A DNA stretch of 64,000 nt from Deltaproteobacteria bacterium CG11_big_fil_rev_8_21_14_0_20_42_23 (lineage in GTDB: Bacteria > UBA10199 > 2-02-FULL-44-16), in assembly GCA_002796345.1 (NCBI GenBank), contig PCXC01000037.1:58276-122275 (forward strand). Direction: 5' to 3'. A program made the position numbers and the translations under genes. Positions 9,053-60,040 of the stretch are shown here, in pieces; the first letter of the stretch is position 1, and every line of letters begins with the position of its first letter. The notes under the pieces were generated by a model. The model was not told where the DNA came from and ran no database searches. It saw nothing but the letters and a program-made list of their open reading frames with translations.

Positions 9053-9195
9053 TTTTGTCATTGCGAATTTGCCAAAGGCAAATGTGGCAATCTCCTCTGA
9101 CAATTGAATGAGGAGATCCTTCGTTACACTCAGGATGACAGCAAAGTGTCTGAATTGCTAGATTCCCGACAACAACATTCGGGAATGACAAAACA
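9010..9195. repeat. nested palindromic repeat element R1 (overlaps 3' end of transporter gene; downstream of adhesin gene stop)
   Basis: gtcattccctcatgg...gggaatctcctc / ctcctctgacaattgaatgaggagatccttcgttacactcaggatgacagcaaagtgt / cccgacaacaacattcgggaatgacaaaac. Shares the 40-nt arm with R3 and R4. Confidence 0.65.
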
Positions 9196-12200: not shown

Positions 12201-15200
12201 GGTTGCACTGCTCACACTCAAGCTTACCGTTGGAGGATCGTCATCATCGGTAATGGTCACCGTTACTTGCTGCGCTCCTGATTCTGTTGCGTTGGTCACA
12301 TCACTCACATCAACGATAACGGTTTCGTTATTTTCATCCAACGTATCTAAGGCAGAACTTATACTCGCCGTGCCCGTTGTGCTTCCTGCTGAAATGGAAA
12401 TAGATGTAGTTGAAAGAGTATAATCTGTTCCCGAACCTGTTGCGGTTCCGCTTGCGGACAAGGTCACCGTTACATCTCGGCCCGAAGCTGCACTTAACGT
12501 GGCGGTAAGCGTTGAACTTCCACTTGTTTCTGAAATGCTCTCGTTATTTACGGCAATGCTCACCGTTGGCGCATCGTCATCATCGGTAATGGTGACGGTG
12601 ATTTGCTGTGTTCCCACTTCTGTTCCGTTGGTCACACTGCTGATATCAACAATCGCCGTTTCATCATCTTCATCTAATGTATCTAAGGCCGAACTGATCG
12701 TAACTGTCCCTGTTGTATTTCCTGCTGAAATGGAAATGGAACTGCCAGAAAGCGTATAGTCAGTGCCTGAACCTGTTGCCGTTCCACTTGCTGATAAGTT
12801 GATCGTCACATCTTGGCCTGATGCATCACTTAACGTTGCCGTTACCGTTGCGCTTCCACTTGTCTCGGAAATGCTAATGTTATCTACCGATAACGTCACG
12901 GATGGTGCATCGTCATCATCTGTAATGGTCACCGTTACTTGCTGTGTTCCAGACTCTGTACCATTCGTCACGCTGCTGATATCAATAATCACCGTCTCGT
13001 CAGTTTCGTCGAGTAAATCTTGTTCTGAAAAAATTGTGGCCGTGCCCGTTGTTTCTCCTGATGAAATCGTAATCGAACTTGATGAAAGCGTGTAGTCTGT
13101 TCCGCTTCCTGTCGCCGTTCCACTTGCAGACAAGTTTACCGTAACATCTCGGCCCGATGCTGCACTTAACGTGGCGGTAATGGTTGAGGTTACTGCACCT
13201 TCTCCTATTGTTGCACTATCTACCGCAATGCTCACCGTTGGAGCGTCGTCATCATCTGTAATGGTCACCGTTACTTGCTGTGTTCCAGACTCTGTACCAT
13301 TCGTCACGCTGCTGATATCAATAATCACGGTTTCATCCGCCTCATCTATTGTATCTAAGGCTGAACTTATACTCGCCGTGCCCGTTGTGTTTCCAGCTGA
13401 AATGGAAATGGAGATAGTTGAAAGCGTATAATCTGTTCCCGAACCTGTCGCTGTTCCGCTTGCGGATAAATTTACCGTTACATCTTGGCCCGAAGCTGCA
13501 CTTAACGTGGCGGTTACGGTTGAACTTCCACTCGTTTCCGAAATACTTGCATTGTTTACCGCAATGCTCACCGTTGGAGCTGCATCATCATCCGTAATGG
13601 TCACCGTTACTTGCTGCGTTCCATCTTCTGTTCCGTTGGTAACGCTATCAACATCAACAATCACTGTTTCGTTCGCTTCATCGGTTGTATCTGTAGCTGC
13701 TGTTATCGTCGCTGTTCCTGTTGTGTTTCCGGCGGTAATGGAAATTGAAGTAGTGGAAAGCGTATAGTCCGCGCCCGAACCGGTTGCGGTTCCGCTTGCT
13801 GAAATGGTTACAGTTGTAGCTAAACCTGAAGCTGCACTTAAAGTTGCGGTTACGGTGGAAACCCCGCCCGTTTCGGAAATGCTGGCATTATCCACGGCAA
13901 TACTCACCGTTGGGGCTGTGTCGTTATCCGTAATATTGACCGTAACATCAGCGATCACAATCGCATTATAATTTCCATCTGCGCTTGATGCTGTATGGCC
14001 CACAGCGCTACTATGATCGCCTTCGTACAGCGTGTCGTTTGTTGCTGTAACCGTTACCGTTTGCGGGGTATCCCAATTTCCTGTGGTGAAGGTTAACGTG
14101 GCCGGACTTGTGGTACATCCACTGTCGGTATCTTCGCAAGCTGGCGTAATCACTACATCGGCCGTTGGCAAAGCATCCAGCACCATCGTGTACGTATCGG
14201 TTGATCCACCTTCGGTGACGTCGGTTGAGGCAACTGACTGAGTAATCGTCACACCTGCAACAGCATCTGTAGCACCATTCACAATCGCCACACTTTTTAA
14301 CTCTGGCGTGTAACTGGTGCTGTCTGATTCTAAAAGTGTTTTATATTGGAAGTATTGGCTCGCAGCACAAGCAGTTAAGCCTGAAATATCAACTGAAGGA
14401 AGCGCAATGGTATTTGTAGTGGATTCTGTAAAGTACGCACTTGTGCTACTATCTGGCCCCATGAAGCTTTCGCCTAAACATGCGCTGTCATTACAACAAC
14501 GAGCTTGAAATTTTTGACGAAGAGCGCCGCGTTTGTACATGTCAAGCACTTCTGTACTAGTGAGCTCTTCATCCCAAATACTCATTTCATCAAGGGTACC
14601 ATTGAAATAAGCGCGTGAAGTTGAAATGTCTTGGTCACCAATGCGTAAAGGAGCAATGGTATCAATCATTTTTGAATAGCTATTATTCGTAGGTGTAATA
14701 TTTGCTGAAGCACCATTGATATAAAAAGTTAATCCGCCTGTTGTTTTACTTCCATCATAGGTAGCACACACATGCTGCCAAGTGCCGGTAACCACTGAAT
14801 TTGTATCCGTTTGCAAACCAAGGTAGGCTGTTCCACCACCATTACTATACAGATAAAACTGAAATTTTTTATTCGTAAGCGTACCAAACTGCCATTCATA
14901 ATATTTTGTGGAACTCACCGTTTTCATTTTAGAAGCCATCATCGCGGTTTGATCAACATCACTATTAAGCCATGTACACACACTAAACGCTGTGTCTGTC
15001 GTACCATCTGTGAATGAAAGCTCTGCCTTGTCACCGCAATCTGCATATGAAGTACTGCCATCAAAATCGATGGCATCGCTTACTTTGCTTTCAGAATGAG
15101 CATAGCTAAGTGCATTTGCAGTACAGTTAAAGTGATTTCCCGAATCATCCCGTAAATCACCCGAGGCTTCATTCATGTGGTAAAGCGCCAAAAGATTGGT

Positions 15201-16271
15201 GGGATCAAAATTACCAGTGGTATATGCACTTTCTGTATTGTTGTCTGCTGTACCAGCTGCAATGCTTGCAACTTCATTAGACGATAAAGCACGAGAAAAA
15301 ATGGCAACATCATCCATACTTCCAGTAATAGGCGTTTTGCCTGAATCTGTACTTCCAAGCATAAGAGGTTGTGTGGTGTCGTAAATGTCTGCTGGTATGG
15401 TACCTCCACAAGAAAGTGTCAGCGCTGTACCATCTCGGTATATTTTCACCTTATCGGTGTTATTCACACCGGATCCATCGTACACAACAGCAAGGTGATA
15501 CCATCTTCCTACCGTAAGATTTGCATCTGTCGTCGAGCAATAGTTCGCACCAGCATCAGATGAACTGCTTGAAGCGAAAAAAACGAGCTCATCGGAAGCT
15601 GATAAGTCTGTACGAAAGAGGATGGAATTGTTTGTTGAGTTCGTAGGATTCCATTTGGTAACAATATTTTTATCTATGGCTAAGCTCGTTTGTTTCATCC
15701 ACAACGACAGAGTAAGCGCAGTACCTTGAGACTCGGTTATATTTCCAAAATCAACTTCATCATCTACACCATCAAAACTAAGAGCAGTGTTATAGACACC
15801 AAGTGATGAATAGGTTACGCCTGTGGCAGTACCATCATAGCCATTTCCAGAGGTATCACCAATCACCCCCGAGCTTTCATTCATCAACGCACGTATTGCC
15901 AAGCCTGTTGTGTCAAAGGAATCGTCTTCAATAATGGGAGTACTTTGACTGCTGGGCAATTCTTTCCCGGCAGGTCTGTTGGGAACCCAAGCAAGTGTAG
16001 ACCACAACACATCGGCTTTAGCATCTTTGATGTCGGAAATGTACGTACCGTCAGTTCCATTTGTAGATTGTTCAACCCAGCTATTCGCAGCATCCCACTG
16101 TACGGCAACATCGTCGTCACCGGTATCGATGTTAAAGGTTCCAGAGCTGTTATCGGTGAGAGTGCTCGCTTGAGCTACAGGAGTATAGATAAGGGACGAC
16201 ATCAGATACGTCATCAGCACAAGATACGTAAATCGATGCTTGCGAAAAAAATGTTGAAACCGACTCAACAT
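9240..16271 (-). CDS. giant secreted surface protein / adhesin: signal peptide, LamG-like lectin domains, ~10 Calx-beta-like repeats, FG-GAP-like repeats, Gly/Ser linker and C-terminal Cys-containing TM sorting-signal-like tail
   Basis: Single 7 kb ORF. Start taken as ATG 16271 (GGGGGGAG 5 nt upstream); the track start at 16295 is a TTG. Signal peptide MLSRFQHFFRKHRFTYLVLMTYLMSSLIYTPVAQA. LamG-type motifs DDVAIFSRALSSNEV and LDEMSIWDEELTSTEV. Six near-identical 112-aa units ending VTVTITDDDD plus four longer Calx-beta-like units. FG-GAP-like GDITGDGVADIIIGGENALYIVYG. C-terminus ...GGGSGGSSGGSDKYFGCQLGSGENADISPLALCGLLFASLIYFREKH. Confidence 0.85.
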   Translation of the reverse strand: MLSRFQHFFRKHRFTYLVLMTYLMSSLIYTPVAQASTLTDNSSGTFNIDTGDDDVAVQWDAANSWVEQSTNGTDGTYISDIKDAKADVLWSTLAWVPNRPAGKELPSSQSTPIIEDDSFDTTGLAIRALMNESSGVIGDTSGNGYDGTATGVTYSSLGVYNTALSFDGVDDEVDFGNITESQGTALTLSLWMKQTSLAIDKNIVTKWNPTNSTNNSILFRTDLSASDELVFFASSSSSDAGANYCSTTDANLTVGRWYHLAVVYDGSGVNNTDKVKIYRDGTALTLSCGGTIPADIYDTTQPLMLGSTDSGKTPITGSMDDVAIFSRALSSNEVASIAAGTADNNTESAYTTGNFDPTNLLALYHMNEASGDLRDDSGNHFNCTANALSYAHSESKVSDAIDFDGSTSYADCGDKAELSFTDGTTDTAFSVCTWLNSDVDQTAMMASKMKTVSSTKYYEWQFGTLTNKKFQFYLYSNGGGTAYLGLQTDTNSVVTGTWQHVCATYDGSKTTGGLTFYINGASANITPTNNSYSKMIDTIAPLRIGDQDISTSRAYFNGTLDEMSIWDEELTSTEVLDMYKRGALRQKFQARCCNDSACLGESFMGPDSSTSAYFTESTTNTIALPSVDISGLTACAASQYFQYKTLLESDSTSYTPELKSVAIVNGATDAVAGVTITQSVASTDVTEGGSTDTYTMVLDALPTADVVITPACEDTDSGCTTSPATLTFTTGNWDTPQTVTVTATNDTLYEGDHSSAVGHTASSADGNYNAIVIADVTVNITDNDTAPTVSIAVDNASISETGGVSTVTATLSAASGLATTVTISASGTATGSGADYTLSTTSISITAGNTTGTATITAATDTTDEANETVIVDVDSVTNGTEDGTQQVTVTITDDDAAPTVSIAVNNASISETSGSSTVTATLSAASGQDVTVNLSASGTATGSGTDYTLSTISISISAGNTTGTASISSALDTIDEADETVIIDISSVTNGTESGTQQVTVTITDDDDAPTVSIAVDSATIGEGAVTSTITATLSAASGRDVTVNLSASGTATGSGTDYTLSSSSITISSGETTGTATIFSEQDLLDETDETVIIDISSVTNGTESGTQQVTVTITDDDDAPSVTLSVDNISISETSGSATVTATLSDASGQDVTINLSASGTATGSGTDYTLSGSSISISAGNTTGTVTISSALDTLDEDDETAIVDISSVTNGTEVGTQQITVTITDDDDAPTVSIAVNNESISETSGSSTLTATLSAASGRDVTVTLSASGTATGSGTDYTLSTTSISISAGSTTGTASISSALDTLDENNETVIVDVSDVTNATESGAQQVTVTITDDDDPPTVSLSVSSATISEGAGFATVTATLSTASGKDVTVDLAASGTATGSGTDYTLFSNSISISAGSTTGTTTVFSSTDSIDESDETIILDISGVTNGSESGTQQQTITITDDDTAGITVAESGGVTNVTEGSTTDTFTVVLNSQPTANVSISLTDDADSDVDVLTLTFTNLNWDTAQTVTVTPVDDDIAEGAHTSAISFGVLSADSGYNATSITDITVNITDDDSAGVSVTESGGATSVTEGSETADTYTIVLTSEPTANVVVTPNPASSCDVSPSSVTFTSANWNTAQTISVTSSDNDLDDGNHTCTISHGASSVDADYDGVAVNSVSATVVDNDAAGVTIAESSGSTSVDVDGTSDTYTVVLTAEPTASVTVTPSGGTDVNVSPTTLTFSTANWDTPQTVTVTWDEASGSSATVTNTATSSDSGYNGISISSVTVTITDAASAEEEEACSTTLVASAGSDVVINTSDTVTLSGASSTGCSVTYSWAITSGDGSLSSATNATPVFTSAGAGTSVVTLTVTDENNETASDTVSIVQVSQAVTSALPSEQIVLSGSNYSVSETARGSGSITLSYTYDGNAFTIIVPNRSASTLDYNIAITNAGFVIVCFPEALTQQGICYVSRSTADTLLGSYELNERKSTPSDFSSVSGSVSGDRFGHAVGSNVAGDYVYISAPEASSNGVINIYELVDGSSPNLSGSVFGSLDYPACSAFQNGFVLEDADSIYFGDCNASSNAQLNLTSTATGDAGTDSDSRGLSAGELPYIFTHSIVDSGSTINLSTSDPDLAVDCTNCELQSTAFGDVNNDGEEDMLLCTSETAYVVYGPHSLSVALSLDDADVTINNDVSDPLFCRSSAIGDITGDGVADIIIGGENALYIVYGSAGLSSSLVVADISEDISASVSVASSSSVSIVSGADIGSDILVKSGSIYSGDGLEYTVGGSSSVGGGSGGSSGGSDKYFGCQLGSGENADISPLALCGLLFASLIYFREKHVDAEEKNKDVA
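11900..13915. repeat. tandem in-frame coding repeats, six units of 336 bp, inside the adhesin gene
   Basis: Antisense + strand ORFs at 12091, 12763, 13171 and 13507 are mutually similar and offset by multiples of 336 nt. The protein shows six ~112-aa APTVSIAV(D/N)NASISET...VTVTITDDDD units. Confidence 0.8.
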
Positions 16272-16523
16272 GAAACTCCCCCCAAATCCCTTCAAAAACT
16301 GTTGTAATGATTGAAAAAAGGATACTCTCTTTTAAGACAAAAAACCACCATTATTTTCTTATTTTGATACTTGTGACAAAAATAGTGTTTTTAAACACTT
16401 ATTATTTTATCATTATGAGAATTAATTGGTAAAACACTGTTTAAAGGGATTGGGAAGGCCTTTTGGGGAAAAGAGGAAGTGGGAGGTTTCTGGGGTGGGG
16501 AGGCATCAACAGTTTTTTTTATT

Positions 16524-16715
16524 TTTGTCATCCTCTGCCTTGAGCAGGCCTGCCGGCAGGCAGGGGATCCAGAATTTTTCTTTTCTAATGCCCTTAGACA
16601 GCACATCACTTGAATTGCTGGATCCCCGCCAAAATCATGCGAGGATGACAAAAAACAAAATTGGCAGAGGAGATTGCTTCACTTCGTTCACAATGACAAT
16701 GAGTTGACTAAATTT
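16524..16715. repeat. nested palindromic repeat element R2 (between adhesin gene start and actF stop)
   Basis: tttgtcatcctctgcc...gcctgccggcaggcaggggatccagaattttt...ttgaattgctggatccccgcc...gcgaggatgacaaaaaac...cttcacttcgttcacaatgacaatgagttgactaaatttc. The tail motif is shared with R3. Confidence 0.65.
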
Positions 16716-18496: not shown

Positions 18497-18974
18497 TGCA
18501 TTCCTTAAAAACACTGTCGATTTTTTCTTCATGATAATGAACATCACTACTATCTACAAAAAGTGCGAACTGATCATCGGTGATGCGTGGATCAAGTTTT
18601 CGCGTTTTCAATCCGTGGTGAATGATCATCGCCCACAAAATAAGCACTGTCGTGACTCCGCTGAACAAGATAGTAAGCTCAAACGTAACGGGAATAAATG
18701 AAGGCCAGCTAAAGGCCGGCTTTCCACCAATGTTGAGATGCCAGTCAACTGATTGCGTCCAATACTGAAACAAAAGCCCAAGCGATCCGCCAGTGAGGCC
18801 AAAGAAAAGTGCGGAATACGAAATCCAAGAACGCTTAATCCCCATGGCGGCTTCCATTCCGTGAATGGGAAACGGACTAAATGCATCCATCTTTTTGATA
18901 TTGAGATGGCGCAGTCTTTTTGCAGCCACCAAGACTTCATGCGGATCATTGAAAAGAGCTATTTTCCCTTTCAT
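18468..18974 (-). CDS. actD: Alternative Complex III subunit ActD (membrane subunit)
   Basis: 168 aa, two TM helices. ATGA overlap with actC stop. Confidence 0.65.
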   Translation of the reverse strand: MKGKIALFNDPHEVLVAAKRLRHLNIKKMDAFSPFPIHGMEAAMGIKRSWISYSALFFGLTGGSLGLLFQYWTQSVDWHLNIGGKPAFSWPSFIPVTFELTILFSGVTTVLILWAMIIHHGLKTRKLDPRITDDQFALFVDSSDVHYHEEKIDSVFKECNAQEIKHLD

Positions 18975-20344
18975 CAGTGACCTCCCTTATGGGCATTGGG
19001 ACTTGGCATAATTGACTTCACTTCAAACATACAAATAGTGGGAAGCACTCGACAGAAAAGGAGGAAGAACATCATGAAGAAACCAAAACTACCAATGGTA
19101 ATTCCCCAATCGTGATCTGTCATTTTATAGTATCCCCAATTTGCGGGAAGGAAATCGCGATGCAATGAAGTAACTACAATCACAAAACGCTCGAACCACA
19201 TTCCAATGTTGGCAAAGATTGATGCTACAAACATTACCGGAATGGAGCGTCGAAGTTTTTTGAACCAGAAAAGTTGTGGCACAATCATGTTGCAGCTTAC
19301 CATAATCCAGTAGGCCCAAGCATACGGCCCAGCAATACGGTTGAGGAAAGCAAAGCGTTCGTAAATATTTCCGCTATACCAAGCGGTGAAAAGCTCGATC
19401 ATGTAGGCATAGCCAACAATCATTCCCGTAACCAACATCACCTTGTTCATTTTTTCCATGTGGCCAATAGTGATGTAATCTTTGAGGTTAAACACTTCAC
19501 GAACAATAGTAAGCAACGTAACCACCATGGCAAAGCCAGAGAACACGGCACCTGCAACGAAGTATGGTGGAAAAATAGTGGTATGCCAGCCAGGCACAAC
19601 TGAAACGGCAAAGTCAAAACTTACAATTGAATGCACCGAAAGAACAAGTGGAGTACTCAAGCCTGCAAGAAGCAAATACACCATTTCATAGTGCGTCCAC
19701 TTGCGGGCGGAACCTCTCCAACCAAAGGACATAACGCCATAGATAAGTTTTCGAATCTTATTTTTTGCGCGGTCGCGAACACTTGCGATATCGGGGATTA
19801 AACCTGTGTACCAAAAGAGAAAAGAAATAGTGAAGTAGGTTGAAACCGCAAACACATCCCACAAAAGTGGTGAGTTGAAGTTCACCCAAAGGTTTCTTTC
19901 ATTGGGATAAGGAAATAACCAAAACGCAAGCCAAGGACGACCGGTGTGAATGAGCGGAAAAATTCCAGCAGTCATCACGGCAAAGATAGTCATAGCCTCA
20001 GCTGAACGGTTGATGGCTGTTCTCCACTTTTGGCGGAAGAGAAACAAAACTGCAGAAATTAATGTTCCGGCGTGACCAATACCAACCCAAAAAACGAAGT
20101 TGGTGATGAAGACTCCCCAACCAACAGGATGATTAAGACCTAAGGTTCCAAGGCCAACACGAAACATGTTCGTTGCATAACAAAGCCCCACCAAAAAAAT
20201 GAGCACCGAAAGCACAAAACAAATCCACCACTTTTTCATCGGCAAAGATTCGAGTGGCTTGCACACCCTTTGCCCAATATCAGCGTAGCTTTTCCCCGGT
20301 GTCACTAAGGGTTCTTGAACGAGTTGGTTTCCTTGAATATCCAT
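18974..20344 (-). CDS. actC: Alternative Complex III subunit ActC (NrfD/PsrC-like quinol-interacting membrane subunit)
   Basis: 456 aa polytopic membrane protein of the NrfD/PsrC type. Directly downstream of the Mo/FeS subunit. Confidence 0.75.
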
Positions 20345-20355
20345 ATCGATTTTAC

Positions 20356-23322
20356 TTACACATTTCTAATTTTGGTTAAATACGTCACCACTGGACGTGT
20401 GTTAAGCTCTGCAAGTACATGATAGCCGCGTTGTGACGCTGCCATTTTTGCCACTTGGCTTTCTTTCATGTTTAAGTCACCAAACGTAATGGCTTGCGCT
20501 GGGCAGGTTTGCTGGCAAGCGGTTTTAATTTCGCCGTCTTTTAATTCTCGTTTTTCAATAATGGCATCATTTCGTTTTTCTTGAATCCGCTGAATACAGA
20601 AGGTACATTTTTCCATCACGCCTCTGCTGCGTGTGGTGATGTCTGGGTTCAAAACCTGATTCATCGGTTCTTTTATGCTAAGCGTTTGTTCAAAAAAGTT
20701 GAAGCGTCTCACTTTGTAAGGGCAGTTGTTTGCACAATACCGGGTTCCAACGCAACGATTGTAGCTCATCATGTTCAAGCCATCATCGCTGTGGAACGTT
20801 GCTAGTGTTGGGCAAACGGTTTCGCAAGGTGCATTGCTGCACTGCTGACAAGTCATAGGCTGATGTGAAACATTTGGATTTGCAGTTTTTCCTTTTTCAC
20901 TGCTGTAGTAACGATCGATGCGAATCCAGTGCATTTCCCGTCCGCGAATCACCTGCTCTTTGCCTACGACGGGAATATTATTCTCCGCCTGACAAGCAAC
21001 TACACAAGCGCTGCAACCAGTACATGCGTTGGTATCAATCACCATTCCCCAACGGTGGCCTTCGTATTTGCGTTCTTCCCACATGCTTGGAAGTTCTGCG
21101 TGTTTTTTTATTCCAGCATGAGGATTGTGCTGAAACTCTTTCCATGTTGCATCGGAAAAAATATCGTGGGCACGGTTTTCAAGTTCATGATGTCCTTGCG
21201 TGCAAGCAAGCAGTGCCGTTTTTCCTGTTTTTTCGAGCTCAACTTTTATTCCATTCCAGCTTGGAGTTTGATGCGCGTACGATTGAAAAGGATAAACCTG
21301 CATTCCATGAGGAGCCGCAAAGCCAAGCGCAACAGCTGCTGTAGCGTCATGCAATTTTGGCTGAATGTGAACTGGAAGCTCGGCAGAAAACGTTTCACTT
21401 TTTACTTTCACTACATCACCTTCGCGAAGTGAAAGCTTTGTTGCTGTTGCAAGAGAAAGGGAAACAACATTTTCCCACGTAAGTTTTGTGACGGGATCTG
21501 GAAGTTCCAGAAGCCAGCTGTTTGTATTATTTCTTCCATCGTAGAGAGAAAGACTTGGATAAAGCGCCAAGCTAAGTTCTGCAGATGAAGAAAGTTGTGG
21601 CAAGTTTTTCAACGCTGAAGGGTTGAAGGTTTCAGCAGAAGCTATTCTGCCGTGATCGTTTCTTTTGGAAGCAAACGCATCAACAAATCCCATCTTCAAG
21701 GCATCTTTCCAAGAAAGAGAACTTGAAACTCGAGGAAGCACTTCGCTTTTCCAATTGTGCTTCAACACTTCGTGATAATTTGATTCGCTGCCAGACCAAT
21801 GCAGCAAAGAATCTTGACATGATCTACCTTGGTGAAGCGGCGCAATTACAGGCTGCACAAGGGTATAAAGTCCGCGCTCTGGATTTGCATCGCCCCAAGC
21901 TTCAAGGTAATGCGTGCCAGGACAAACGACATGGCTTTGTGCGGAGGTTGCCGTAAAATAATCTGCGCAAGAAATAACAAGCCCCACTTTTTTCAGCGCT
22001 TCTTCGCAGTTTAATTCTGCGGGAAGTGTAAAGAGAGGATCTGCATCGGCGACAATAAGCACTTCCACTTCACCAGCGTGCATTTCTGCCACAAGGTGTT
22101 TGAGTTCTTCAAACGAACTGCCCACGTAATCGCGAGGAGCAAGCGTCCAGTCTAGCGTTACACCATCATTGGCAAGTGTAGAGTTGATAAAGTTTACCGC
22201 CACTTGAAGCAGCACAGCATCTTTTGCATTTGGATTGGCTCCAACTACAAGACCTGTTCCGCGTGAAGCAACAAGTTCTTCTGCTGTTTCTACAATGTGA
22301 GATGCAGGAAAATTAATTTTGCTTTCAAGTTTTTCTGGAGCATAGCTTCGTAAAGAGCTTGCTACACTTGCATTTCCGGTTCGCCTTGCAACTTCATAAG
22401 CAAGACTTAGCGCAACAAAAATTTCATCTCCCGCTTTCACCGGAACAAACATATCTGCATTTGTACCCGTTACGGTTGGAACAGATTCAAAGGCAATGAA
22501 GCGTGACATTTTTCCCGCGTCAACATTTCTGCCTTCGGAAAATCCAGCCATATTGCGAACTGGATTCATCCAATTGCCAAGGAAATCGGCGCCAAAAGAA
22601 ACAATGACTTTTGCCTCTTCAAAACGATAGCGTGGCAAGAGTGATTTTCCGTACGAAAGCTTTGCCGCTTCAACCATTTCATTTGGAAAAACAGAATCGT
22701 ATGAAATGCTTGCTGCGTTGTAGGTATTTTCAAAACTTCGCAGTACTTTTTGCGTAGTAGGAGAGCTGCTTACACCCGTAAGCACTCTTATTTTTCCGCC
22801 TGTTTTTTTCACGGCATCAAGCTTGGCGATGATGTGCTTGTCGAGGTCTTCCCAGTTGCTTTCTTTTAGCGTTCCATTTTGCACAAAGCTTGGAGCTTTG
22901 ATTCTATCGGGATGATACAAATCCAGCAAACTGGCTTGCGCTCTGGCTGAGAGGCCCGTTGCATTGAGAGGAGCATCAACATTTGGCTCAAGTTTAACCG
23001 GACGGCCTTCGCGCGTTCTGACTAAAACTGCATAAGAGGAACTTCCATCTTCAAAACTAGAAGCGTACCAAACCGGAACACCAGGAATCACACCTTCTGG
23101 CTTGTTGATGTAAGGCATAATTTTTTCAACAGGTCTTCGTGTACAGGCAGCGCCCGCCATAGCGATACTTGCCGCCATTACCTTTAAAAAGTCGCGGCGT
23201 TCCATGCCGGACATTTCGGCTTTCTGAGGAGGCTCTGCAAACTCTTTTCCCGTACGAGCTTCAAACTCTGCCGTTTGCTCGAGCTCTTCGATGCTTTTCC
23301 AAAAGGTCACATTTTTCTTCAT
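20356..23322 (-). CDS. actB: Alternative Complex III subunit ActB (molybdopterin-oxidoreductase-like domain fused to 4Fe-4S ferredoxin domain, Tat signal)
   Basis: Start likely M16 ([20 protein letters not shown]..., typical ActB N-terminus). Twin-arginine motif [19 protein letters not shown]-terminal Cys clusters [38 protein letters not shown]. Confidence 0.85.
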
Positions 23323-23323
23323 A

Positions 23324-23851
23324 TTAATAATGACAGCTTTCACAATGCGTTGGAGCATTTTTCTCACGATGGCAATCGATACAAAATCCCATCTGTAATG
23401 TTTTTACTTGGCTAACCCGTTCCATACTTCCCACATCACCATGACACTGCGTACAATCAAGCCCAGCCGCAATATGCCGTTCGTGGGTAAACCGAACATG
23501 ATCTGGAAGATCGTGCACTTTTATCCACTCGAGAGGCTGCCCATTGGCATACATATCGCGAAGCTTTTGAATATAAGGACTGTCCAGCTTCACTACCTGG
23601 TGACAGTTCATGCAAATATTCATAGCAGGCACAACAGCGTGCTTCGATTTATCAACTCCCACATGACAATACTGGCAAGGGATTTGATTATCTCCGGCGT
23701 GAAGTTTATGGCTAAAGGGAATCGGCTGCTTTGGAGCATAACCAGTGTTGTCGCCAAGTTTCACCAAACTCCGCACTCCAAATGCCAATAAAATGACCGG
23801 AAGAGATAAAAGAGAAAGAAATAAAATTTTCTGGAAGCACTTACCCTTCAA
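23324..23851 (-). CDS. actA: Alternative Complex III subunit ActA (pentahaem cytochrome c)
   Basis: Five CxxCH motifs: CQYCH, CMNCH, CTQCH, CIDCH, CESCH. N-terminal signal/anchor. Confidence 0.85.
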   Translation of the reverse strand: MKGKCFQKILFLSLLSLPVILLAFGVRSLVKLGDNTGYAPKQPIPFSHKLHAGDNQIPCQYCHVGVDKSKHAVVPAMNICMNCHQVVKLDSPYIQKLRDMYANGQPLEWIKVHDLPDHVRFTHERHIAAGLDCTQCHGDVGSMERVSQVKTLQMGFCIDCHREKNAPTHCESCHY

Positions 23852-24122
23852 TGATTTCCCCTTGGAACAACCTCTCGTTGAAATAATGTGGGCGCTATCT
23901 ACCCTCCTTGAAAATTTCTGTCGAGGAAAAAATCGAGATCAAATGAAAAAGTCTCAAACAGGAAATAAAGGACTCTCCGCCTCTAAAAAGTCTGAAGAAA
24001 ACAAACTCTATTACGAACCCAAAAGAGGAGTTGCTTTCAAGCATACCTGTCACCTTCAACGCAAAAGAAAGCCCCCAGCTTTTTCCTTGCCTGTCCTCTA
24101 AGATCTTGTTAGAGGCCCTCAC

Positions 24123-24935
24123 ATGAAAATTCGGACTTTAACAATTTGCTTTTTTTTCGCCCTTTTTTCTCTTTTATCGCATCATCTTGTGGCCGCAGAA
24201 TCAACTCCTGTCGAGCTTAAAGACGTTGGTATAGAAGAGCACTTGGGTGAACAGATTACGCTCTCGCTTCCTTTTTTGGACCAAAATGGAAATGAAGTGA
24301 CACTTGCGGACTACTTTCACAAAGACAAAGCAGTGCTTTTTGTATTTGTTTATTATGAATGTCCGGGGCTTTGTACTTTCGTTTTAAACGGAATGATAAA
24401 TGGGCTTCGCGACGTGCAGCTCACTCCTGGAAAAGAATTTGAAATCGTGGTGGTGAGTATTGATTCCAAGGAAACTCCACTACTGGCGAAAGAAAAGTTA
24501 ACTTCGTATTTGAAAATGTATCGTGAAGGCAGCACTGAAAGTGGTTGGCACTTTCTTACTGGAAGTGACGAAAGCATTCGGCAACTCACGAAAGAAATTG
24601 GTTTCTCCTATGTTTACGATGCCGAGCAAAAGCAGTTTGCACACGCATCTGCCGTTTACGCACTCACACCAACCGGAAAAATTTCTCGCTATCTTTTTGG
24701 CATCGAGTATGCGCCCAGAGATGTGAAACTCGCTCTTCTTGAAGCAAGCGAAGGAAAATTAGGAAACCTTATTGATAAGCTTTTGCTCTACTGCTATCAC
24801 TACGACCCCAAAGGAAAAAAGTATGCCCTTCTTGCAGTGAATATTATGAAAATTGCAGGTGTCATCACCCTCCTTGGGCTTGGAATATTGATTCATCTTC
24901 TGATGAAAAAACGAAAAAAGGCGGAAAGACTATGA
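24123..24935 (+). CDS. sco: SCO1/SenC-family copper chaperone (thioredoxin-like, CxxxC)
   Basis: Signal/anchor, YYECPGLCTFVLNGM CxxxC motif. First gene of the oxidase operon. Confidence 0.75.
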   Translation: MKIRTLTICFFFALFSLLSHHLVAAESTPVELKDVGIEEHLGEQITLSLPFLDQNGNEVTLADYFHKDKAVLFVFVYYECPGLCTFVLNGMINGLRDVQLTPGKEFEIVVVSIDSKETPLLAKEKLTSYLKMYREGSTESGWHFLTGSDESIRQLTKEIGFSYVYDAEQKQFAHASAVYALTPTGKISRYLFGIEYAPRDVKLALLEASEGKLGNLIDKLLLYCYHYDPKGKKYALLAVNIMKIAGVITLLGLGILIHLLMKKRKKAERL

Positions 24936-25909
24936 TTGGAACTATAAACCTTCCTCAAGCTTCATCAATGGCGGGAAACGTTGATGCACTTTATTCTTTT
25001 ATTTTCATTATTTCACTTATTAGCTTCGCTCTTATTGTTGGCGCGTTGGTTTACTTTTCCTACAAGTACAGCAGAAAAAAATGCAACTCCGAAACGACCG
25101 CTTACATTCATGGAAACACAGCGCTTGAAGTAGGAATGAGTGCCGTTTTGTTCGTCATCGTTATGGTGATTTTTGCATGGGGTTGGATCGATTACAAAAA
25201 AATACGACTCGTTCCCGCAAATGCGCTTGAAGTCAATGTTATCGGACAGCAATGGTTGTGGAACCTCGAATATAAAAACGGAAGAAAACTTACCAACGAA
25301 CTTGTTGTTCCAAAAGATGTTCCCGTCAAATTAGTCATGGGTTCCAAAGATGTGTTGCACAGCTTTTATGTGCCTGCATTTCGTTTGAAGCAAGATCTTG
25401 TTCCTGGTCAATTCACCTATATTTCTTTCACCGCAATTGAACTTGGTGAGTTTCCCATCTTCTGCGCGGAATTCTGCGGTACAGCTCACTATGGCATGAT
25501 TGGAAAAGTGAAAGTGGTAGAAAAAGCAGCCTACGAAAAATGGCAAAACGTTTGGGAACTTGAGCAACGCTTAGGCATCAACGAAGCCGAAGCTTCAGAA
25601 AAAACAACTACGCAACTTTCACCAGTTGAACACGGAAAAGAACTCTTTACCAAACAAGGCTGCACCGCTTGTCACTCTACAGGCACCAACAAACTTGTTG
25701 GCCCTGGTTTAGCTGGCCTCTTTGGAAAAGAAACAACGCTTACAGATGGAAAAAAATTAACCGTAGACGAAAACTACATTAGAAGATCGCTTATGGAACC
25801 AAATGCTGAACTGGTAGAGGGCTTTGCTCCTCTTATGCCTACGTTTAAAGGACAATTGAGTGATGAAGAAGTCAATCATCTGATTGCATATTTGAAAAGC
25901 CTTCAATAA
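24932..25909 (+). CDS. coxB: cytochrome c oxidase subunit II with C-terminal cytochrome c domain (caa3-type)
   Basis: CuA motif HSFYVPAF...FCAEFCGTAHYGM. C-terminal CTACHS haem-c site. Confidence 0.9.
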   Translation: MIGTINLPQASSMAGNVDALYSFIFIISLISFALIVGALVYFSYKYSRKKCNSETTAYIHGNTALEVGMSAVLFVIVMVIFAWGWIDYKKIRLVPANALEVNVIGQQWLWNLEYKNGRKLTNELVVPKDVPVKLVMGSKDVLHSFYVPAFRLKQDLVPGQFTYISFTAIELGEFPIFCAEFCGTAHYGMIGKVKVVEKAAYEKWQNVWELEQRLGINEAEASEKTTTQLSPVEHGKELFTKQGCTACHSTGTNKLVGPGLAGLFGKETTLTDGKKLTVDENYIRRSLMEPNAELVEGFAPLMPTFKGQLSDEEVNHLIAYLKSLQ

Positions 25910-25945
25910 TTTAAAGTCGCACCAAAAGAAAAACGGAGAACTACC

Positions 25946-27544
25946 ATGAGTCACAGTCACGGCGCTGGAGAGAACTATCTTATTGCAAAACGAGGCATCA
26001 TGTCCTGGCTGATCACCGTCGATCACAAACGCATTGGACTTATGTACCTCATCACTACAGCCATCTTTTTTCTTGTTGGTGGGCTCTTAGCGCTTTCGGT
26101 TAGGCTGGAACTTATGCTTCCAGGCCAAACCATCATGGAACCCGATACCTATAACAAGGCGTTTACACTTCATGGCGCCATCATGATTTTTCTGTTTATC
26201 ATCCCTGCTATTCCAGCAGCACTTGGAAACTTTTTTCTTCCGCTTATGCTGGGCGCAAAAGACGTGGCGTTTCCCAAGCTAAACCTTGCAAGCTACTACA
26301 TTTTTATTTTTGGTGCACTGCTTGCCATCTTCGCCATCTTTGACGGCGGCGTTGACACAGGCTGGACATTTTACACGCCCTACAGCATCAAAACCGCTGG
26401 CAGTGTGGTTTTGACAGCACTTGGTGTTTTTGTCATGGGCTTCTCTTCTATTCTCACCGGACTTAATTTTATCGTCACCATTCACAAACTAAGAGCTCCG
26501 GGCATGGGCTTTTTCAAAATGCCGCTTTTTGTTTGGGCAACGTATTCAACAGCTATCATCCAAGTCTTGGCAACTCCTGTTATTGGAATCACCGTTTTGC
26601 TTTTGGCAATGGAACGCATTTTAGGCATCGGATTTTTTGATCCCACACTTGGTGGCGATCCTGTTCTCTTCGAACACTTTTTTTGGTTCTACTCTCATCC
26701 AGCAGTGTACATTATGATTTTGCCTGCCATGGGAATTATCAGCGAAGTCATCACAGTTTTTTCGCGCAAACATATTTTTGGATACAAGGCCATCGCCTTC
26801 TCAAGCTTGGCTATTGCGGCTATTAGCTTTTTGGTGTGGGGACATCACATGTTTGTAAGTGGTCAATCCGACTTGGCCAATTTTCTTTTCTCTTTGCTCA
26901 CCATGCTGGTTGCTATTCCCACTGCCATTAAAGTGGTGAACTGGACGGCGACGCTTTACAAAGGTTCCATCGATTTCAAAACACCAATGCTTTATGCCCT
27001 CGCTTTTATTTTTCTCTTCACCATTGGTGGATTAACAGGGCTTTTCCTGGCAGCGCTTTCTGTGGATGTCCATCTTCACGACACCTACTTTGTGGTTGCT
27101 CACTTTCACTACGTGATGATGGGCGGAACGGTTATGGGTTTTCTTGCCGGCGTTCATTACTGGTGGCCAAAAATTACAGGAAAAATGTACCACGAAAAAA
27201 GCGGGCAAATCGCTTGTTCACTCATTTTCCTTGGCTTCAACATTACTTTTATCAGCCAGTTTATTCTGGGCAGCAGAGGAATGCCGCGTCGCTACTATGA
27301 TTATTCGGCAGAATACGCACCGCTGAATATGGTTTCAACTTTTGGTTCTTGGCTCATTGGCATGGGCTTCTTGCTGGCCACTATTTATTTGATTCACTCA
27401 TGGTTTAGAGGCAAGGCAGCTTCTGCAAATCCTTGGAATGCAAAAACCTTGGAGTGGATGACGTCATCTCCGCCGCCAGAGCACAACTTTGCTGAAACTC
27501 CTCATGTCACCGAAGGGCCTTATGAGTACGGAGTAAAAGCTTAA
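25946..27544 (+). CDS. coxA: cytochrome c oxidase subunit I
   Basis: 532 aa, 12 TM helices, conserved haem-copper oxidase histidines (WAHHMF-type region GHHMFVSG). Confidence 0.95.
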
Positions 27545-27578
27545 CCGTTAACGAAAGAAAATTTTAGAAGAGGTTCCT

Positions 27579-28211
27579 ATGTCACAACATGTAGTTGCGC
27601 ATCATTTTGATTCGGCGAAACAAGAATTCGAATCATCTAAGTTGGGAATGTGGTTGTTTCTGATAACAGAAGTTCTGCTTTTCGGCGGGCTTTTTGTGGC
27701 CTACATTATTTTCCGCATTAAATATCCGGAGATGTTTCACGAAGCCAGCAAATTTCTCAATCGTCCCATGGGCGCCTTCAACACTGTTGTGCTTATCTGC
27801 TCTAGCTTCACGATGGCCATGGCGGTGAACGCAACGCAGCGCAATGATCAAAACAAAGCCAATCAATATCTCATCGTCACTTTGTTTTGTGGTCTTATTT
27901 TCATGGTGATTAAATTTTTCGAATACAGCCACAAATTTCACGAGGGATTATTCCCAGGAGCTCACTTTGCGTTTGAAGGTCAGAGCCCAGAACATTCTTC
28001 ACTTTTTTTCTCGCTTTATTTCATGATGACAGGATTGCACGGTATTCACGTGCTTGTAGGGATGGGGCTTATTCTTTGGTGCCTCATCAAATCAAACAGA
28101 GGCGCTTTTTCTAGTTCCTATTATACCCCTGTTGAGAACACCGGAATTTACTGGCATTTGGTGGATTTAATTTGGATCTACCTTTTCCCCCTTATGTATT
28201 TAATAGGATAA
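27579..28211 (+). CDS. coxC: cytochrome c oxidase subunit III
   Basis: 210 aa, subunit III-like helices (GLHGIHVLVG). Confidence 0.85.
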   Translation: MSQHVVAHHFDSAKQEFESSKLGMWLFLITEVLLFGGLFVAYIIFRIKYPEMFHEASKFLNRPMGAFNTVVLICSSFTMAMAVNATQRNDQNKANQYLIVTLFCGLIFMVIKFFEYSHKFHEGLFPGAHFAFEGQSPEHSSLFFSLYFMMTGLHGIHVLVGMGLILWCLIKSNRGAFSSSYYTPVENTGIYWHLVDLIWIYLFPLMYLIG

Positions 28212-28283
28212 TTTTTTTGTACCATTAACGTGCAGTCATCCCGAACGAGATGACAGGCTTAGAAGACATCAGCGAGAATAATT

Positions 28284-29067: not shown

Positions 29068-29279
29068 TTTGTCATCCTCGCGCAGGCGGCCTGCCTGCCG
29101 GTCAGGCAGGGGATCCAGCAATTCAAACACTTTGCTGTCATCCTGAGTGGAACGAAGGATCTCCTCTGACAATTTTGCTTTTGTTATAGTCGAATGCTTA
29201 AAGTGTTTGAGGAGATCCTTCACTTCGTTCAGGATGACAAAACAGGGAATTGTTAAATGACAATGAGTTGACTGAATTC
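29068..29279. repeat. nested palindromic repeat element R3 (inside the cox/cta operon, between subunit-IV::cyt c and ctaA)
   Basis: gtcatcctcgcgcaggcggcctgcctgccggtcaggcaggggatccagcaattcaaacac tttgctgtcatcctgagtggaacgaaggatctcctc tgacaatt...gaggagatccttcacttcgttcaggatgacaaaacag...aatgacaatgagttgactgaattc. Confidence 0.7.
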
Positions 29280-29280
29280 A

Positions 29281-30141
29281 ATGAAAAAACTTTTACTCCT
29301 TCTTATCAGCCTTACTTTTCTTCTCTTCCTCTGGGGAGCAACGGTGAGGGCTTTTGGCGCGGGGATGGCTTGCCCTGATTGGCCGCTCTGTTATGGACAA
29401 GTGCTGCCGCCTCTCGATTTCCTCATTTTTCTCGAATGGGGTCACCGCAAACTTGCAGCTCTTATTGGTTTGCTGCTTCTCGCTTTTCTGGTTCTCGTCT
29501 TCAAATCTCGTGATGCTCGAAAACAATTAGGAACGCTGGCAATCGTTTCGTTTTTTCTTTTGTTGCTTCAAGTTTTTATGGGCGCACTCACTGTGTTTCA
29601 TTACAACATTCCCTATTCTGTAAGTTTACATTTTGGAGTAGGGCTTTTCTTTCTCTCCACGCTTGTCATTATGTACCGAAAATTAAGCCCAGCAGTTGAA
29701 GCCACGCGAAGCCGCGGCATTTTGCTGCTCAGCTTCTTCGGACTTGCGTTGTGTTTTGTGCAAATTCTTTTGGGAAGCTATGTAGCCTCAAGCCATGCAG
29801 GCCTTGTCTGTCCTGATTTTCCCGCCTGCTTCGGTTCTTTCTTTCCCCCATTGGAAGGAAAAATAGGGCTGCAAATGTTTCACCGTTATTTGGCTTATGC
29901 GCTCACTCTTTTTGTGGCCTGTTTCCTGCTAAAAGCCAGTAGAGAACGGTTTCCGTTGAAGTTTCGAAAACTCTTCTTGCTTCTCGCCTCAATCACGATA
30001 ATACAGGTCTTCCTCGGCATCGGGAATGTTGTTTTTGAACTGCCTTATGTCTTGAGAGTTGCCCACAATGGAGTGGCGACTCTTCTCTTTTTAACGTTTG
30101 TGACCATTACTTATGAACTCTCGCGCCTCCGATTATCTTAG
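29281..30141 (+). CDS. ctaA: haem A synthase (COX15/CtaA)
   Basis: Conserved CPDWPLC and second Cys pair CPDFPAC. 8 TM helices. Confidence 0.85.
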   Translation: MKKLLLLLISLTFLLFLWGATVRAFGAGMACPDWPLCYGQVLPPLDFLIFLEWGHRKLAALIGLLLLAFLVLVFKSRDARKQLGTLAIVSFFLLLLQVFMGALTVFHYNIPYSVSLHFGVGLFFLSTLVIMYRKLSPAVEATRSRGILLLSFFGLALCFVQILLGSYVASSHAGLVCPDFPACFGSFFPPLEGKIGLQMFHRYLAYALTLFVACFLLKASRERFPLKFRKLFLLLASITIIQVFLGIGNVVFELPYVLRVAHNGVATLLFLTFVTITYELSRLRLS

Positions 30142-31962: not shown

Positions 31963-32172
31963 TTTTGTCATCCTTCCGCCTAAGGTGAAGGGATCTAGGA
32001 ATTAAAACACTTTGCTGTCATCCTGAGTGTAACGAAGGATCTCCTCATACAATTTGGGTATTTGACCATAGCAAAATCAGAATTGCCCGAGGAGATCCTT
32101 CTCTTCGTTCAGGATGACACAGAATTGTGGATCTCCGCGTTCCTGCCAAAGGCAGGCAAGCGCGAGGATACA
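31963..32172. repeat. nested palindromic repeat element R4
   Basis: gtcatccttccgcctaaggtgaagggatctaggaattaaaacac tttgctgtcatcctgagtgtaacgaaggatctcctc...gaggagatccttctcttcgttcaggatgaca...cctgccaaaggcaggcaagcgcgaggat. Confidence 0.7.
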
Positions 32173-59965: not shown

Positions 59966-60040
59966 TGTTGTCATCCTGAACGTAGTGAAGGATCTCCTCG
60001 CAAATACAGTAGATTCTTCGCTTTGCTCAGAATGACAAGA
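59966..60040. repeat. palindromic repeat element R5 (short copy) between ftsL and ftsI inside the dcw cluster
   Basis: ttgtcatcctgaacgtagtgaaggatctcctcg...cttcgctttgctcagaatgacaag. Same GTCATCCTGA / GAAGGATCTCCTC modules as R1, R3 and R4. Confidence 0.6.

Follow-up and report, generated by a model that had tools for sequence, protein, structure and literature searches.

The 64,000-nucleotide stretch of Deltaproteobacteria bacterium CG11_big_fil_rev_8_21_14_0_20_42_23 studied here (contig PCXC01000037.1, positions 58,276 to 122,275; hereafter the window) contains six composite inverted-repeat elements, designated R0 to R5, and a mini-hairpin; the flagged element, R3, lies at 29068-29279. These elements are very probably mosaics of short, oriented DNA hairpin repeats of the CGTC/TGTC-tagged superfamily of repetitive extragenic palindromes (REPs), to which NTS and the Ssn-related motifs (SRM) belong, and would act as single-stranded DNA (ssDNA) targets of an Ssn-type nuclease through the mechanism outlined below. 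The superfamily itself is already known; the new features are the host lineage, the nested composite architecture, and a widespread class of units missed by the published motif. This class, termed the Y unit, is a variant captured by neither of the two published definitions when compared by search motif and by stem and loop geometry.

The first of these definitions comes from Di Nocera, De Gregorio and Rocco (BMC Genomics 2013, PMC3733652), who described a CGTC-tagged REP superfamily in which the tag often reads TGTC, A-T occupies stem positions 1 and 2, the tail is CCA-like, and dimers mostly have their tags on the outside. Their survey spanned five phyla, with the repeat dRS3 as family CGTC-1 and the Rickettsia repeats RPE-4 and RPE-6 as further members, and recovered neither a tyrosine transposase gene flanked by CGTC repeats nor a dedicated transposase. 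The second comes from Chenal et al. 2025 (Nat Commun, PMC11893778), who gave these repeats the names NTS and SRM; according to them, about half of the Neisseria dRS3 copies represent a longer oriented motif, NTS (CGTCATTCCCGCGMAVGCGGGAATCYRG), while SRM flank homologues of ssnA, which encodes a 94-aa stand-alone GIY-YIG protein, in many phyla, with at least one SRM near 71% of them. SsnA binds the folded motif only as ssDNA and in one orientation only, cuts a few nucleotides upstream, and ignores both RNA and double-stranded DNA; cutting is governed by bases upstream of the palindrome, and binding by the C that follows it (PMC11893778). Nuclease action has been shown for the Neisseria and Wolbachia homologues of ~95 aa, and in N. 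meningitidis SsnA restricts transformation by NTS-bearing DNA (PMC11893778). The same authors note a likeness to insertion sequences, as a hypothesis, and to REP-RAYT, and leave the role of the system elsewhere open (PMC11893778). Bentley et al. 2007 (PMC1797815) had earlier described NIMEs as mosaic arrays of dRS3 and spacers, at that time said to be absent outside Neisseria.

The units of the window share a single plan, comprising an unpaired TGTC tag, a hairpin that starts with the pairs A-T and T-A (GTC-AT...AT-C), a C right after the stem, and a short tail. The tag reads TGTCAT(T/C) in 17 of the 18 units, the remaining one being degenerate (GTATCC), and ATC is found after the stem in every unit. 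Two classes can be recognized. The X class has the form GTCAT(C/T)C followed by a variable and often branched interior and then GG(G/A)ATC(C/T)AG with the tail (C)AATT; its ends in the window are GGGGATCCAG or GGGAATCTAG, and its terminal bases are ATCCAG, ATCTAG or ATCCAC. The Y class has the form GTCATCCTGA-RYGNARNG-AAGGATC with the tail TCCTC and the ending ATCTCC; written out as GTC-[ATCCT-GA-GC-GNA-GC-GA-AGGAT]-C, it has a stem of 5 bp followed by two G.A mismatches in tandem, a further 2 bp, and a triloop of the form GNA. Among the X units, the right unit of R0 (GTCATCCTCTGGCTTGACCAGGGGATCCAC) has a 9-bp stem and a 5-nt loop, and its loop GCTTGAC is also found in a Rhizobium SRM adjoining an ssn gene; units of R1 have an 8-bp stem with a 9-nt loop, and the other X units have branched interiors of 20-35 nt. 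Wherever units form pairs in R0 to R5, the tags lie outside.

When set against the two published definitions, the window units show the oriented 5' flank of the SRM, (H)GTC(A/T)(T/C), upstream of the palindrome, an imperfect palindrome of 20-50 nt that can be folded as a hairpin (10 folds, and seven covarying pairs in Y), and a C right after the palindrome within an ATCYRG-like 3' end. They likewise display the tag, the A-T/T-A start of the stem, the short unpaired 3' tail, and the tags-out dimers of the CGTC-REPs. The first-pass annotation had described the elements as a dispersed, REP- or MITE-like family and reported that it did not recognise the family, allowing that a match to a known named family would count against this; such a name exists, and the units are those of the TGTC-tagged CGTC-REPs and of NTS/SRM (PMC3733652, PMC11893778). 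Its interpretation is thus supported in part, being right in kind for a family that had already been named.

The hairpin structure of the units is supported by folding and by compensatory change. In all 10 units that were folded singly, the stem register is identical and begins at the A after TGTC. Covariation was assessed in 61 distinct units from other genomes, which were chosen by anchors lying outside the proposed pairs and do not match the search patterns, thus avoiding circularity. In this set the pairs 4-24, 5-23, 6-22, 7-21, 8-20, 11-17 and 12-16 are Watson-Crick in 80-92% of the units, against 34-82% in shuffles, and several pair types occur at single positions, as at pair 6-22 (CG 24, TA 18, GC 12).

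The shared arms are real and exceed what chance would give. The 25-nt Y core has seven matches in the window at up to 3 mismatches, against none expected from 100 dinucleotide shuffles, and 13 of the 16 exact GTCATCC/GGATGAC heptamers of the window fall within the seven elements, which make up 1.6% of its length. An independent repeat search recovers the shared arms (direct families D8 and D10-D12) as well as the inverted pairs within elements (I1-I9, I12 and I13). The window is 93.7% coding, and R0 to R5 and the mini-hairpin are all intergenic, accounting for about 25% of its intergenic DNA. A scan for tRNA and tmRNA genes returned nothing.

The flagged element R3 folds strongly, with -92.9 kcal/mol as RNA (z = -6.4) and -49.9 kcal/mol as DNA (z = -7.0), in agreement with the nested palindromic, intergenic family of long stem-loops described in the first-pass annotation. 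The RNA fold, along with the location of the elements at gene ends or between co-transcribed genes, could indicate that they are primarily RNA elements, namely intrinsic terminators, mRNA-stabilising stem-loops or small-RNA genes repeated by chance. This explanation is most improbable. The whole window has no match to an Rfam covariance model at gathering score, neither R3 nor R4 carries a terminator-like site, no T-run follows the hairpins, and termination would be harmful at R5, which is located between ftsL and ftsI within the dcw operon. Further, the pairs are strand-symmetric, and GCGNAGC with tandem G.A pairs, the core of the Y unit, is a DNA-type mini-hairpin. RNA is ignored by SsnA, the one protein for which recognition of such repeats has been demonstrated (PMC11893778). 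Hence, the role as RNA stem-loops or terminators proposed in the first-pass annotation is a side effect at best, and in the reading preferred here the stem-loops that form in transcripts would be a by-product of DNA hairpins.

The partner gene of these units was approached from two directions. On the DNA-to-protein route, the open reading frames (ORFs) within 300 nt of 144 units in the genome loci were clustered de novo, followed by a hidden Markov model (HMM) of the resulting family; the loci comprised 120 from genomes (0.9 Mb) and 120 from metagenomes, chosen by the Y motif, and the motif-selected DNA amounted to ~2.1 Mb overall. The sole ORF family confined to positions adjacent to units encodes a protein of ~95 aa, present in 4 of the 120 genome loci at 16-172 nt from a Y unit, and its HMM recovered no further copy in the 0.9 Mb of genome loci. 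In the 120 metagenome loci we identified seven more GIY-YIG ORFs, each with a Y unit adjoining or overlapping it, on contigs ranging from 28% to 76% G+C; all 11 GIY-YIG ORFs of the motif-selected loci therefore adjoin units. Pfam assigns these proteins to GIY-YIG (PF01541) and to nothing else, and NCBIfam has no model that matches them. An affiliation with the YhbQ/UPF0213 type was considered and rejected: among solved structures, UPF0213 proteins come closest but reach no better than E = 3e-7, and the published family is a separate one, cd10448.

On the reciprocal, protein-to-DNA route, all seven homologues chosen by protein sequence alone have TGTC- or CGTC-tagged units on both sides; they come from a Hymenobacter-like bacterium, Pedobacter soli, a member of Chloroflexia, plasmids of Spirosoma, Planktothrix and Rhizobium, and N. 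gonorrhoeae. Across 90% of its length, the Y-flanked Hymenobacter protein shares 37% identity with the product of an unannotated N. gonorrhoeae ORF (E = 7e-8); because eight canonical NTS repeats lie within 2.2 kb of it, this ORF is identified with the published ssnA locus. In three of the homologues, each looked up across several samples, the gene context of ssn is constant.

The arrangement of gene and repeats takes two forms. In Chloroflexia and several metagenome contigs, the gene is enclosed by a single inverted pair, forming a compact cassette of ~420 bp, and in Bacteroidota it stands between two complete pairs. Compact cassettes in loci L227 (28% GC), L256, L287, L339 and L335 (76% GC) contain the same Y core despite widely differing base composition, and in L287 the ORF begins directly after the tail of one unit and ends inside the other. 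The homologue on the Planktothrix agardhii plasmid p1 (L349; NZ_LR882964.1, 18256-19707) sits amid Y-type arrays with the GAGTGAAACGA loop seen in the window, between an MmeI-type restriction-modification gene and the DISARM gene drmA, that is, in a defence-island context.

These results bear on two explanations that invoke a transposase. The first, that the elements are classical REPs, REPINs or BIMEs mobilised by a RAYT, a tyrosine transposase of the IS200/IS605 Y1 type, draws on a real similarity of form, as the elements consist of tagged palindromes in spaced inverted pairs and mosaic clusters, are intergenic, and are conserved at an orthologous locus in a relative. It is nevertheless highly improbable, given that the tag is TGTC and not GTAG or GTGG, that no tyrosine transposase is flanked by CGTC repeats (Di Nocera et al., PMC3733652), that the clustering of ORFs beside the 144 units yielded no transposase family but only GIY-YIG, and that no transposase domain is annotated in those parts of the window covered by domain annotation. 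The second regards the elements as MITEs (miniature inverted-repeat transposable elements) of a DDE-type insertion sequence, with terminal inverted repeats (TIRs), a target-site duplication and a transposase encoded elsewhere. In keeping with this, the elements have inverted termini, are small, occur as near-identical copies at unrelated loci (96% between R5 and L298), and are found on viral contigs. However, no target-site duplication is visible at the element ends, each supposed TIR folds on itself into an oriented hairpin that shows compensatory changes, what such ends enclose or adjoin in other genomes is the gene for a 95-aa GIY-YIG nuclease and not for a DDE transposase, and the ~2.1 Mb of motif-selected loci contain no full-length insertion sequence with these ends and a DDE transposase. 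An origin as MITEs is accordingly as improbable as mobilisation by a RAYT.

Several observations weigh against the reading of the elements as Ssn-type targets, and are considered together here. The published SRM search sequence, HGTCWYN(0-2)YYVSBRHN(0-5)WNVSBRGN(0-2)RNCYNB, which is a heuristic derived from 29 genomes and not a functional definition, matches only one of the 18 window units (16618-16650 on the minus strand, within the R2 unit 16613-16649; 0.16 expected) and none of 400 Y-type units from other genomes. The geometry of families CGTC-1 to CGTC-4, with a stem of 8-9 bp and a loop of 4-5 nt, fits only the right unit of R0, and the Y units differ from it. A single Y unit taken by itself scores weakly in nearest-neighbour energy (-1.6 to -2.7 kcal/mol, z ~0); the case for its structure lies in the covariation and in the stability attributed to its motifs in DNA. 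In DNA, GCGNAGC forms a well-known mini-hairpin of unusual stability and tandem G.A pairs stack well, which would account for the weak nearest-neighbour score of so well conserved a unit. Neither the window with 10 kb on each side (84 kb) nor the loci L280, L298 and L235 contain a GIY-YIG or ssn ORF. Lastly, an empty insertion site was not found, the contigs of the source organism being essentially identical to the window, with at most one mismatch each.

The lack of an ssn gene in the 84 kb examined lends some support to a further explanation, that the elements are orphan relics, Ssn-type repeats which after loss of the nuclease are kept and reshuffled only by homologous recombination and gene conversion. 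Degenerate tags, a collapsed arm in R3 and R4, the mosaic exchange of modules, and a contig (L218) that leaves the window path exactly at R0 are compatible with this, as is the report that 19% of SRM-rich genomes have no detectable Ssn homologue (Chenal et al. 2025, PMC11893778). On the other hand, a large number of units are intact, and identity between loci is seen in some, such as the 47-nt X-Y junction in its five copies, which argues for recent copying or selection, and the search for ssn covered a small part of the genome. We therefore regard an orphan status as unlikely, if less so than the transposase-based and RNA-based explanations, and retain the interpretation of the elements as targets of an Ssn-type nuclease.

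Copies of the family also lie beyond the window. The proteins of the window are identical to those of the NCBI metagenome-assembled genomes (MAGs) CG11_big_fil_rev_8_21_14_0_20_42_23 and CG_4_10_14_0_2_um_filter_43_8, and many assemblies of JGI, ENA and Logan contain the window sequence as well. When metagenomes were scanned with the Y unit and its tail, this recovered the loci L280 and L298, which belong to the same genome according to their protein accessions (the same three NCBI MAG series) and contain further composite elements; the presence of additional copies in the source genome, which the first-pass annotation had proposed to look for, was thereby borne out. The complete R5 pair recurs at other loci with 94-96% identity, namely L298 in the source organism (96%) and L325. 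The SRM search sequence is matched by two units of L280 and one of L235, a locus of a close relative, and these motif-positive units, TGTCATTCCCGCGAAGGCGGGAACCCAC and TGTCATCCTCGCGAACGCGGGGATCCAG, are fused to Y units. Such joining of NTS-like and Y units in one composite element within one genome argues for a common mechanism. In a relative with a CtaA protein 88% identical, locus L350 has the orthologous R3 element upstream of ctaA (L350 1-125 against window 29137-29283; the contig starts inside the repeat). Its left Y unit and spacer are as in R3, and its right arm reads GTCATTGC...GCAAG instead of GTCATCCT...AGGATC, reflecting either replacement of a unit or compensatory change at one locus. 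The element at the ctaA site thus appears to be old, with turnover of its units, since the relative has an orthologous element with a different right arm.

The Y unit shows an exceptionally wide phyletic spread. The pattern GTCATCCTGARYGNARYGAAGGATC occurs in at least 120 stretches of contigs sampled at one genome per species, with ~0.07 expected by chance on our estimate, and among the matches listed the 25-nt unit is identical in more than 15 phyla. Its hosts include Acidobacteriota, Chloroflexota, Bacteroidota, Bacillota, Patescibacteria, Planctomycetota, Nitrospirota, Omnitrophota, Gemmatimonadota, Verrucomicrobiota, Calditrichota and several proteobacterial classes, with Hymenobacter glaciei and Dysgonomonas termitidis among the cultured ones. 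A convergent partner lies within 200 nt for 48-64% of the units from other genomes, at a median spacer of 26-36 nt. The 25-nt unit was also found in 76 IMG/VR stretches (L127-L202), often as inverted pairs; no GIY-YIG ORF lies nearby in these 76 viral contigs, and no GIY-YIG relative was confirmed in IMG/VR. Searches for the unit as a text string returned only primers and unrelated matches in the literature, and none of the unit strings that were looked for appears in the supplementary files of Di Nocera 2013.

The composition of the individual elements reveals how the two classes are combined. The window has 18 hairpin units and one collapsed remnant, and reading of the regions upheld both the positions and the arm sequences given for the six elements and the mini-hairpin in the first-pass annotation. 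Its division into X and Y modules needs revision in that the basic unit is smaller than those modules. R3 consists of X on the plus strand (29071-29123), Y on the plus strand (29137-29166), a 42-nt spacer, Y on the minus strand (29209-29238), a collapsed minus-strand X remnant (29243-29261), and a conserved upstream flank that extends to 29279. R4 (31963-32172) has the same plan, X Y / Y' X', with X at 31967-32003 (+), Y at 32017-32046 (+), Y at 32089-32118 (-) and X at 32123-32171 (-), the last being the unit with the degenerate tag GTATCC; in R3 the interior of the right X arm is deleted. An X pair therefore encloses a Y pair in both of these elements. The other elements are built differently. 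R5 (59966-60040) is a bare Y-type inverted pair (59970-59999 on the plus strand, 60007-60036 on the minus strand), and R0 (908-1020) a bare pair of NTS-like X units with the tags outside (912-969 on the plus strand, 984-1017 on the minus strand). R1 (9010-9195) comprises four differing units, of the GTCATTCCC type (9013-9046, plus), the GTCATTGC type (9057-9097, plus), the Y type (9110-9139, minus), and an NTS-like type, GTCATTCCCG...CGGGAATCTAG (9153-9189, minus). R2 (16524-16715) contains X units at 16527-16576 (+) and 16613-16649 (-) and a solo Y variant, GTCATTGTGAACGAAGTGAAGCAATC, at 16667-16697 (-).

The tail AATGACAATGAGTTGACT(A/G)AATT, correctly reported in the first-pass annotation as common to R2 and R3, is formed by a minus-strand unit, namely by its 5' end together with the flank upstream of it. 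Over the X-to-Y junction, 47 nt are invariant in five copies (R1, R3, R4, L280 and L235), while hairpin interiors and spacers vary, which suggests that modules have been swapped between copies. The mini-hairpin GTCATCCCGAACGAGATGAC at 28235-28254 consists of the two outer tag ends of a pair with next to nothing between them, and would represent a collapsed pair. A comparable mini-hairpin, TTTTGTCATCCTTCCTGTCGTCAGGATGACAAAA, occurs on a Spirosoma oryzicola plasmid (L347), ~40 nt downstream of the ssn homologue encoded there. Collapsed pairs such as this one and the mini-copy of the window may perhaps be a regular by-product of the family.

On the whole, these features allow a mechanism to be proposed. 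The source organism probably has, or had, an Ssn-type nuclease, which, if present, would cut or mark ssDNA at the repeats during replication, repair or the entry of DNA from outside. An inverted pair would offer one cleavable unit per strand, situated at an outer edge of the element. Pairs without a gene might then depend on a single-copy ssn gene for their spread and persistence, being its non-autonomous partners in the way that REPINs are those of RAYTs, and the mosaics would arise by recombination between copies.

A more tentative extension, which we consider possible but doubtful, is that the Y unit and its partner gene form a mobile element pair distributed across bacteria. The autonomous form may then be the ~420-bp cassette of unit, 95-aa GIY-YIG gene and inverted unit, and the non-autonomous forms may be gene-less pairs like those of R3 to R5. 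Such mobility would explain how a 25-nt sequence came to be identical across so many phyla among the matches listed, and, if real, would mean that an ssDNA-specific GIY-YIG nuclease acts as a transposase, a chemistry of transposition not yet described. To the insertion-sequence hypothesis of Chenal et al., our analysis adds the compact cassettes, the statistics of the doublets, and a unit class missed by their motif.

The first description of the Ssn system dates from 2025. Its published search motif counts too few members of the family and overlooks altogether the unit class with the widest spread. Doublets like those of REPINs and mosaics like those of NIMEs are seen to occur in an uncultured, free-living groundwater bacterium, and the units and hosts identified here offer concrete substrates for asking whether Ssn nucleases give rise to the repeats, keep them in place or only make use of them. 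There is also a value for annotation, as around a quarter of the non-coding DNA of the window is repeat-derived, with spurious ORFs on the repeats and contig breaks or switches at them.

The spurious ORFs anticipated in the first-pass annotation were recovered: those at 898-1251 (on R0) and 16426-16707 (on R2) have no Pfam match, and a 72-aa "gene" is called on R0 in a public assembly (L218 10529-10747). The transporter ORF 7790-9052 ends 40 nt inside R1, and its last codons are repeat-derived. As to assembly, L218 is identical to the window as far as position 1018, where R0 has its right end, and from there (L218 10649 onward) runs on into unrelated genes; L219 and L220 keep to the path of the window, and L223 and L224 terminate inside R5 (window 59985 and 60022). 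Behind these breaks and path switches lies either recombination at the repeats or an artefact to which they gave rise in assembly.

Other genes near the elements are varied. The minus-strand ORF 9240-16295, bracketed by R1 and R2, encodes a 2351-aa protein with Calx-beta, FG-GAP and Laminin_G_3 domains and at least six tandem 336-nt (112-aa) repeats at 11873-13946. In the context of R3, the region 18974-28211 has an alternative-complex-III-like cluster (NrfD, molybdopterin/Fe-S and cytochrome c7 proteins) beside SCO1 and caa3-type oxidase genes (COX2, COX1 and COX3), which constitutes ordinary respiratory content. Some 6-10 kb to the left of the window start, L219 1-3800 contains small helix-turn-helix ORFs, an S24-peptidase repressor and DUF1376; it has the look of a prophage or integrated element and contains no repeat units.

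Comparison with known systems places the window elements more precisely. With the REP/REPIN/BIME-RAYT systems (Bertels and Rainey 2011, PMC3116915; Nunvar et al. 2010, PMC2817692) they share the tagged hairpin and the inverted doublet that forms a long hairpin. They also share the underlying logic of non-autonomous copies and a single-copy gene for a cognate nuclease, itself flanked by repeats, but the tag in those systems is GTAG and the enzymes are unrelated (an HUH Y1 transposase as against GIY-YIG). Correia elements and other bacterial MITEs are likewise small palindromic intergenic repeats that can be co-transcribed. Correia elements, at 100-150 bp with fixed 26-bp TIRs and a TA duplication, are confined to Neisseria and bear no sequence or structural resemblance to the window elements. 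The likeness to them suggested in the first-pass annotation is hence misplaced, the Neisseria counterpart being dRS3 and the NIMEs. As in NIMEs, tagged hairpins alternate with repeated spacers, recombine to mosaics and often lie near surface-protein genes; NIME arrays can be much longer, whereas the window elements have at most four units in a nested palindromic order.

With the CGTC-REPs, the window units have in common the unpaired CGTC/TGTC tag, the A-T start of the stem, a tail near CCA (C-CAG and C-CAC in X), tags-out dimers, and the absence of a transposase. The Y unit departs from them in its architecture of 5 bp, two G.A pairs, 2 bp and a 3-nt loop and in its TCC tail, most X loops are larger, and the Y unit is found in many more phyla than the five of the survey. 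Relative to NTS and SRM, the loops of the window X units are far longer and branched, up to 49 nt, the search motif misses 17 of the 18 window units and all Y units, and ssn was not found in the sequence read. The host is also a free-living groundwater bacterium and not a competent pathogen or symbiont, so that the role in restricting transformation, known from Neisseria, may not carry over. At the same time, both show an oriented hairpin with a GTCAT 5' flank and a C after the palindrome, in hundreds of intergenic copies that flank genes, and the order of R1, the 2351-aa gene and R2, in a repeat-gene-repeat layout, resembles the NTS clusters around Neisseria surface-protein genes. Both are associated with a stand-alone GIY-YIG gene for a protein of ~94-100 aa that is itself flanked by repeats, the proteins encoded beside Y units share homology with the ssnA product of N. 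gonorrhoeae, and the X units of the window have the very ends of NTS, GTCAT...GGGRATCYAG.

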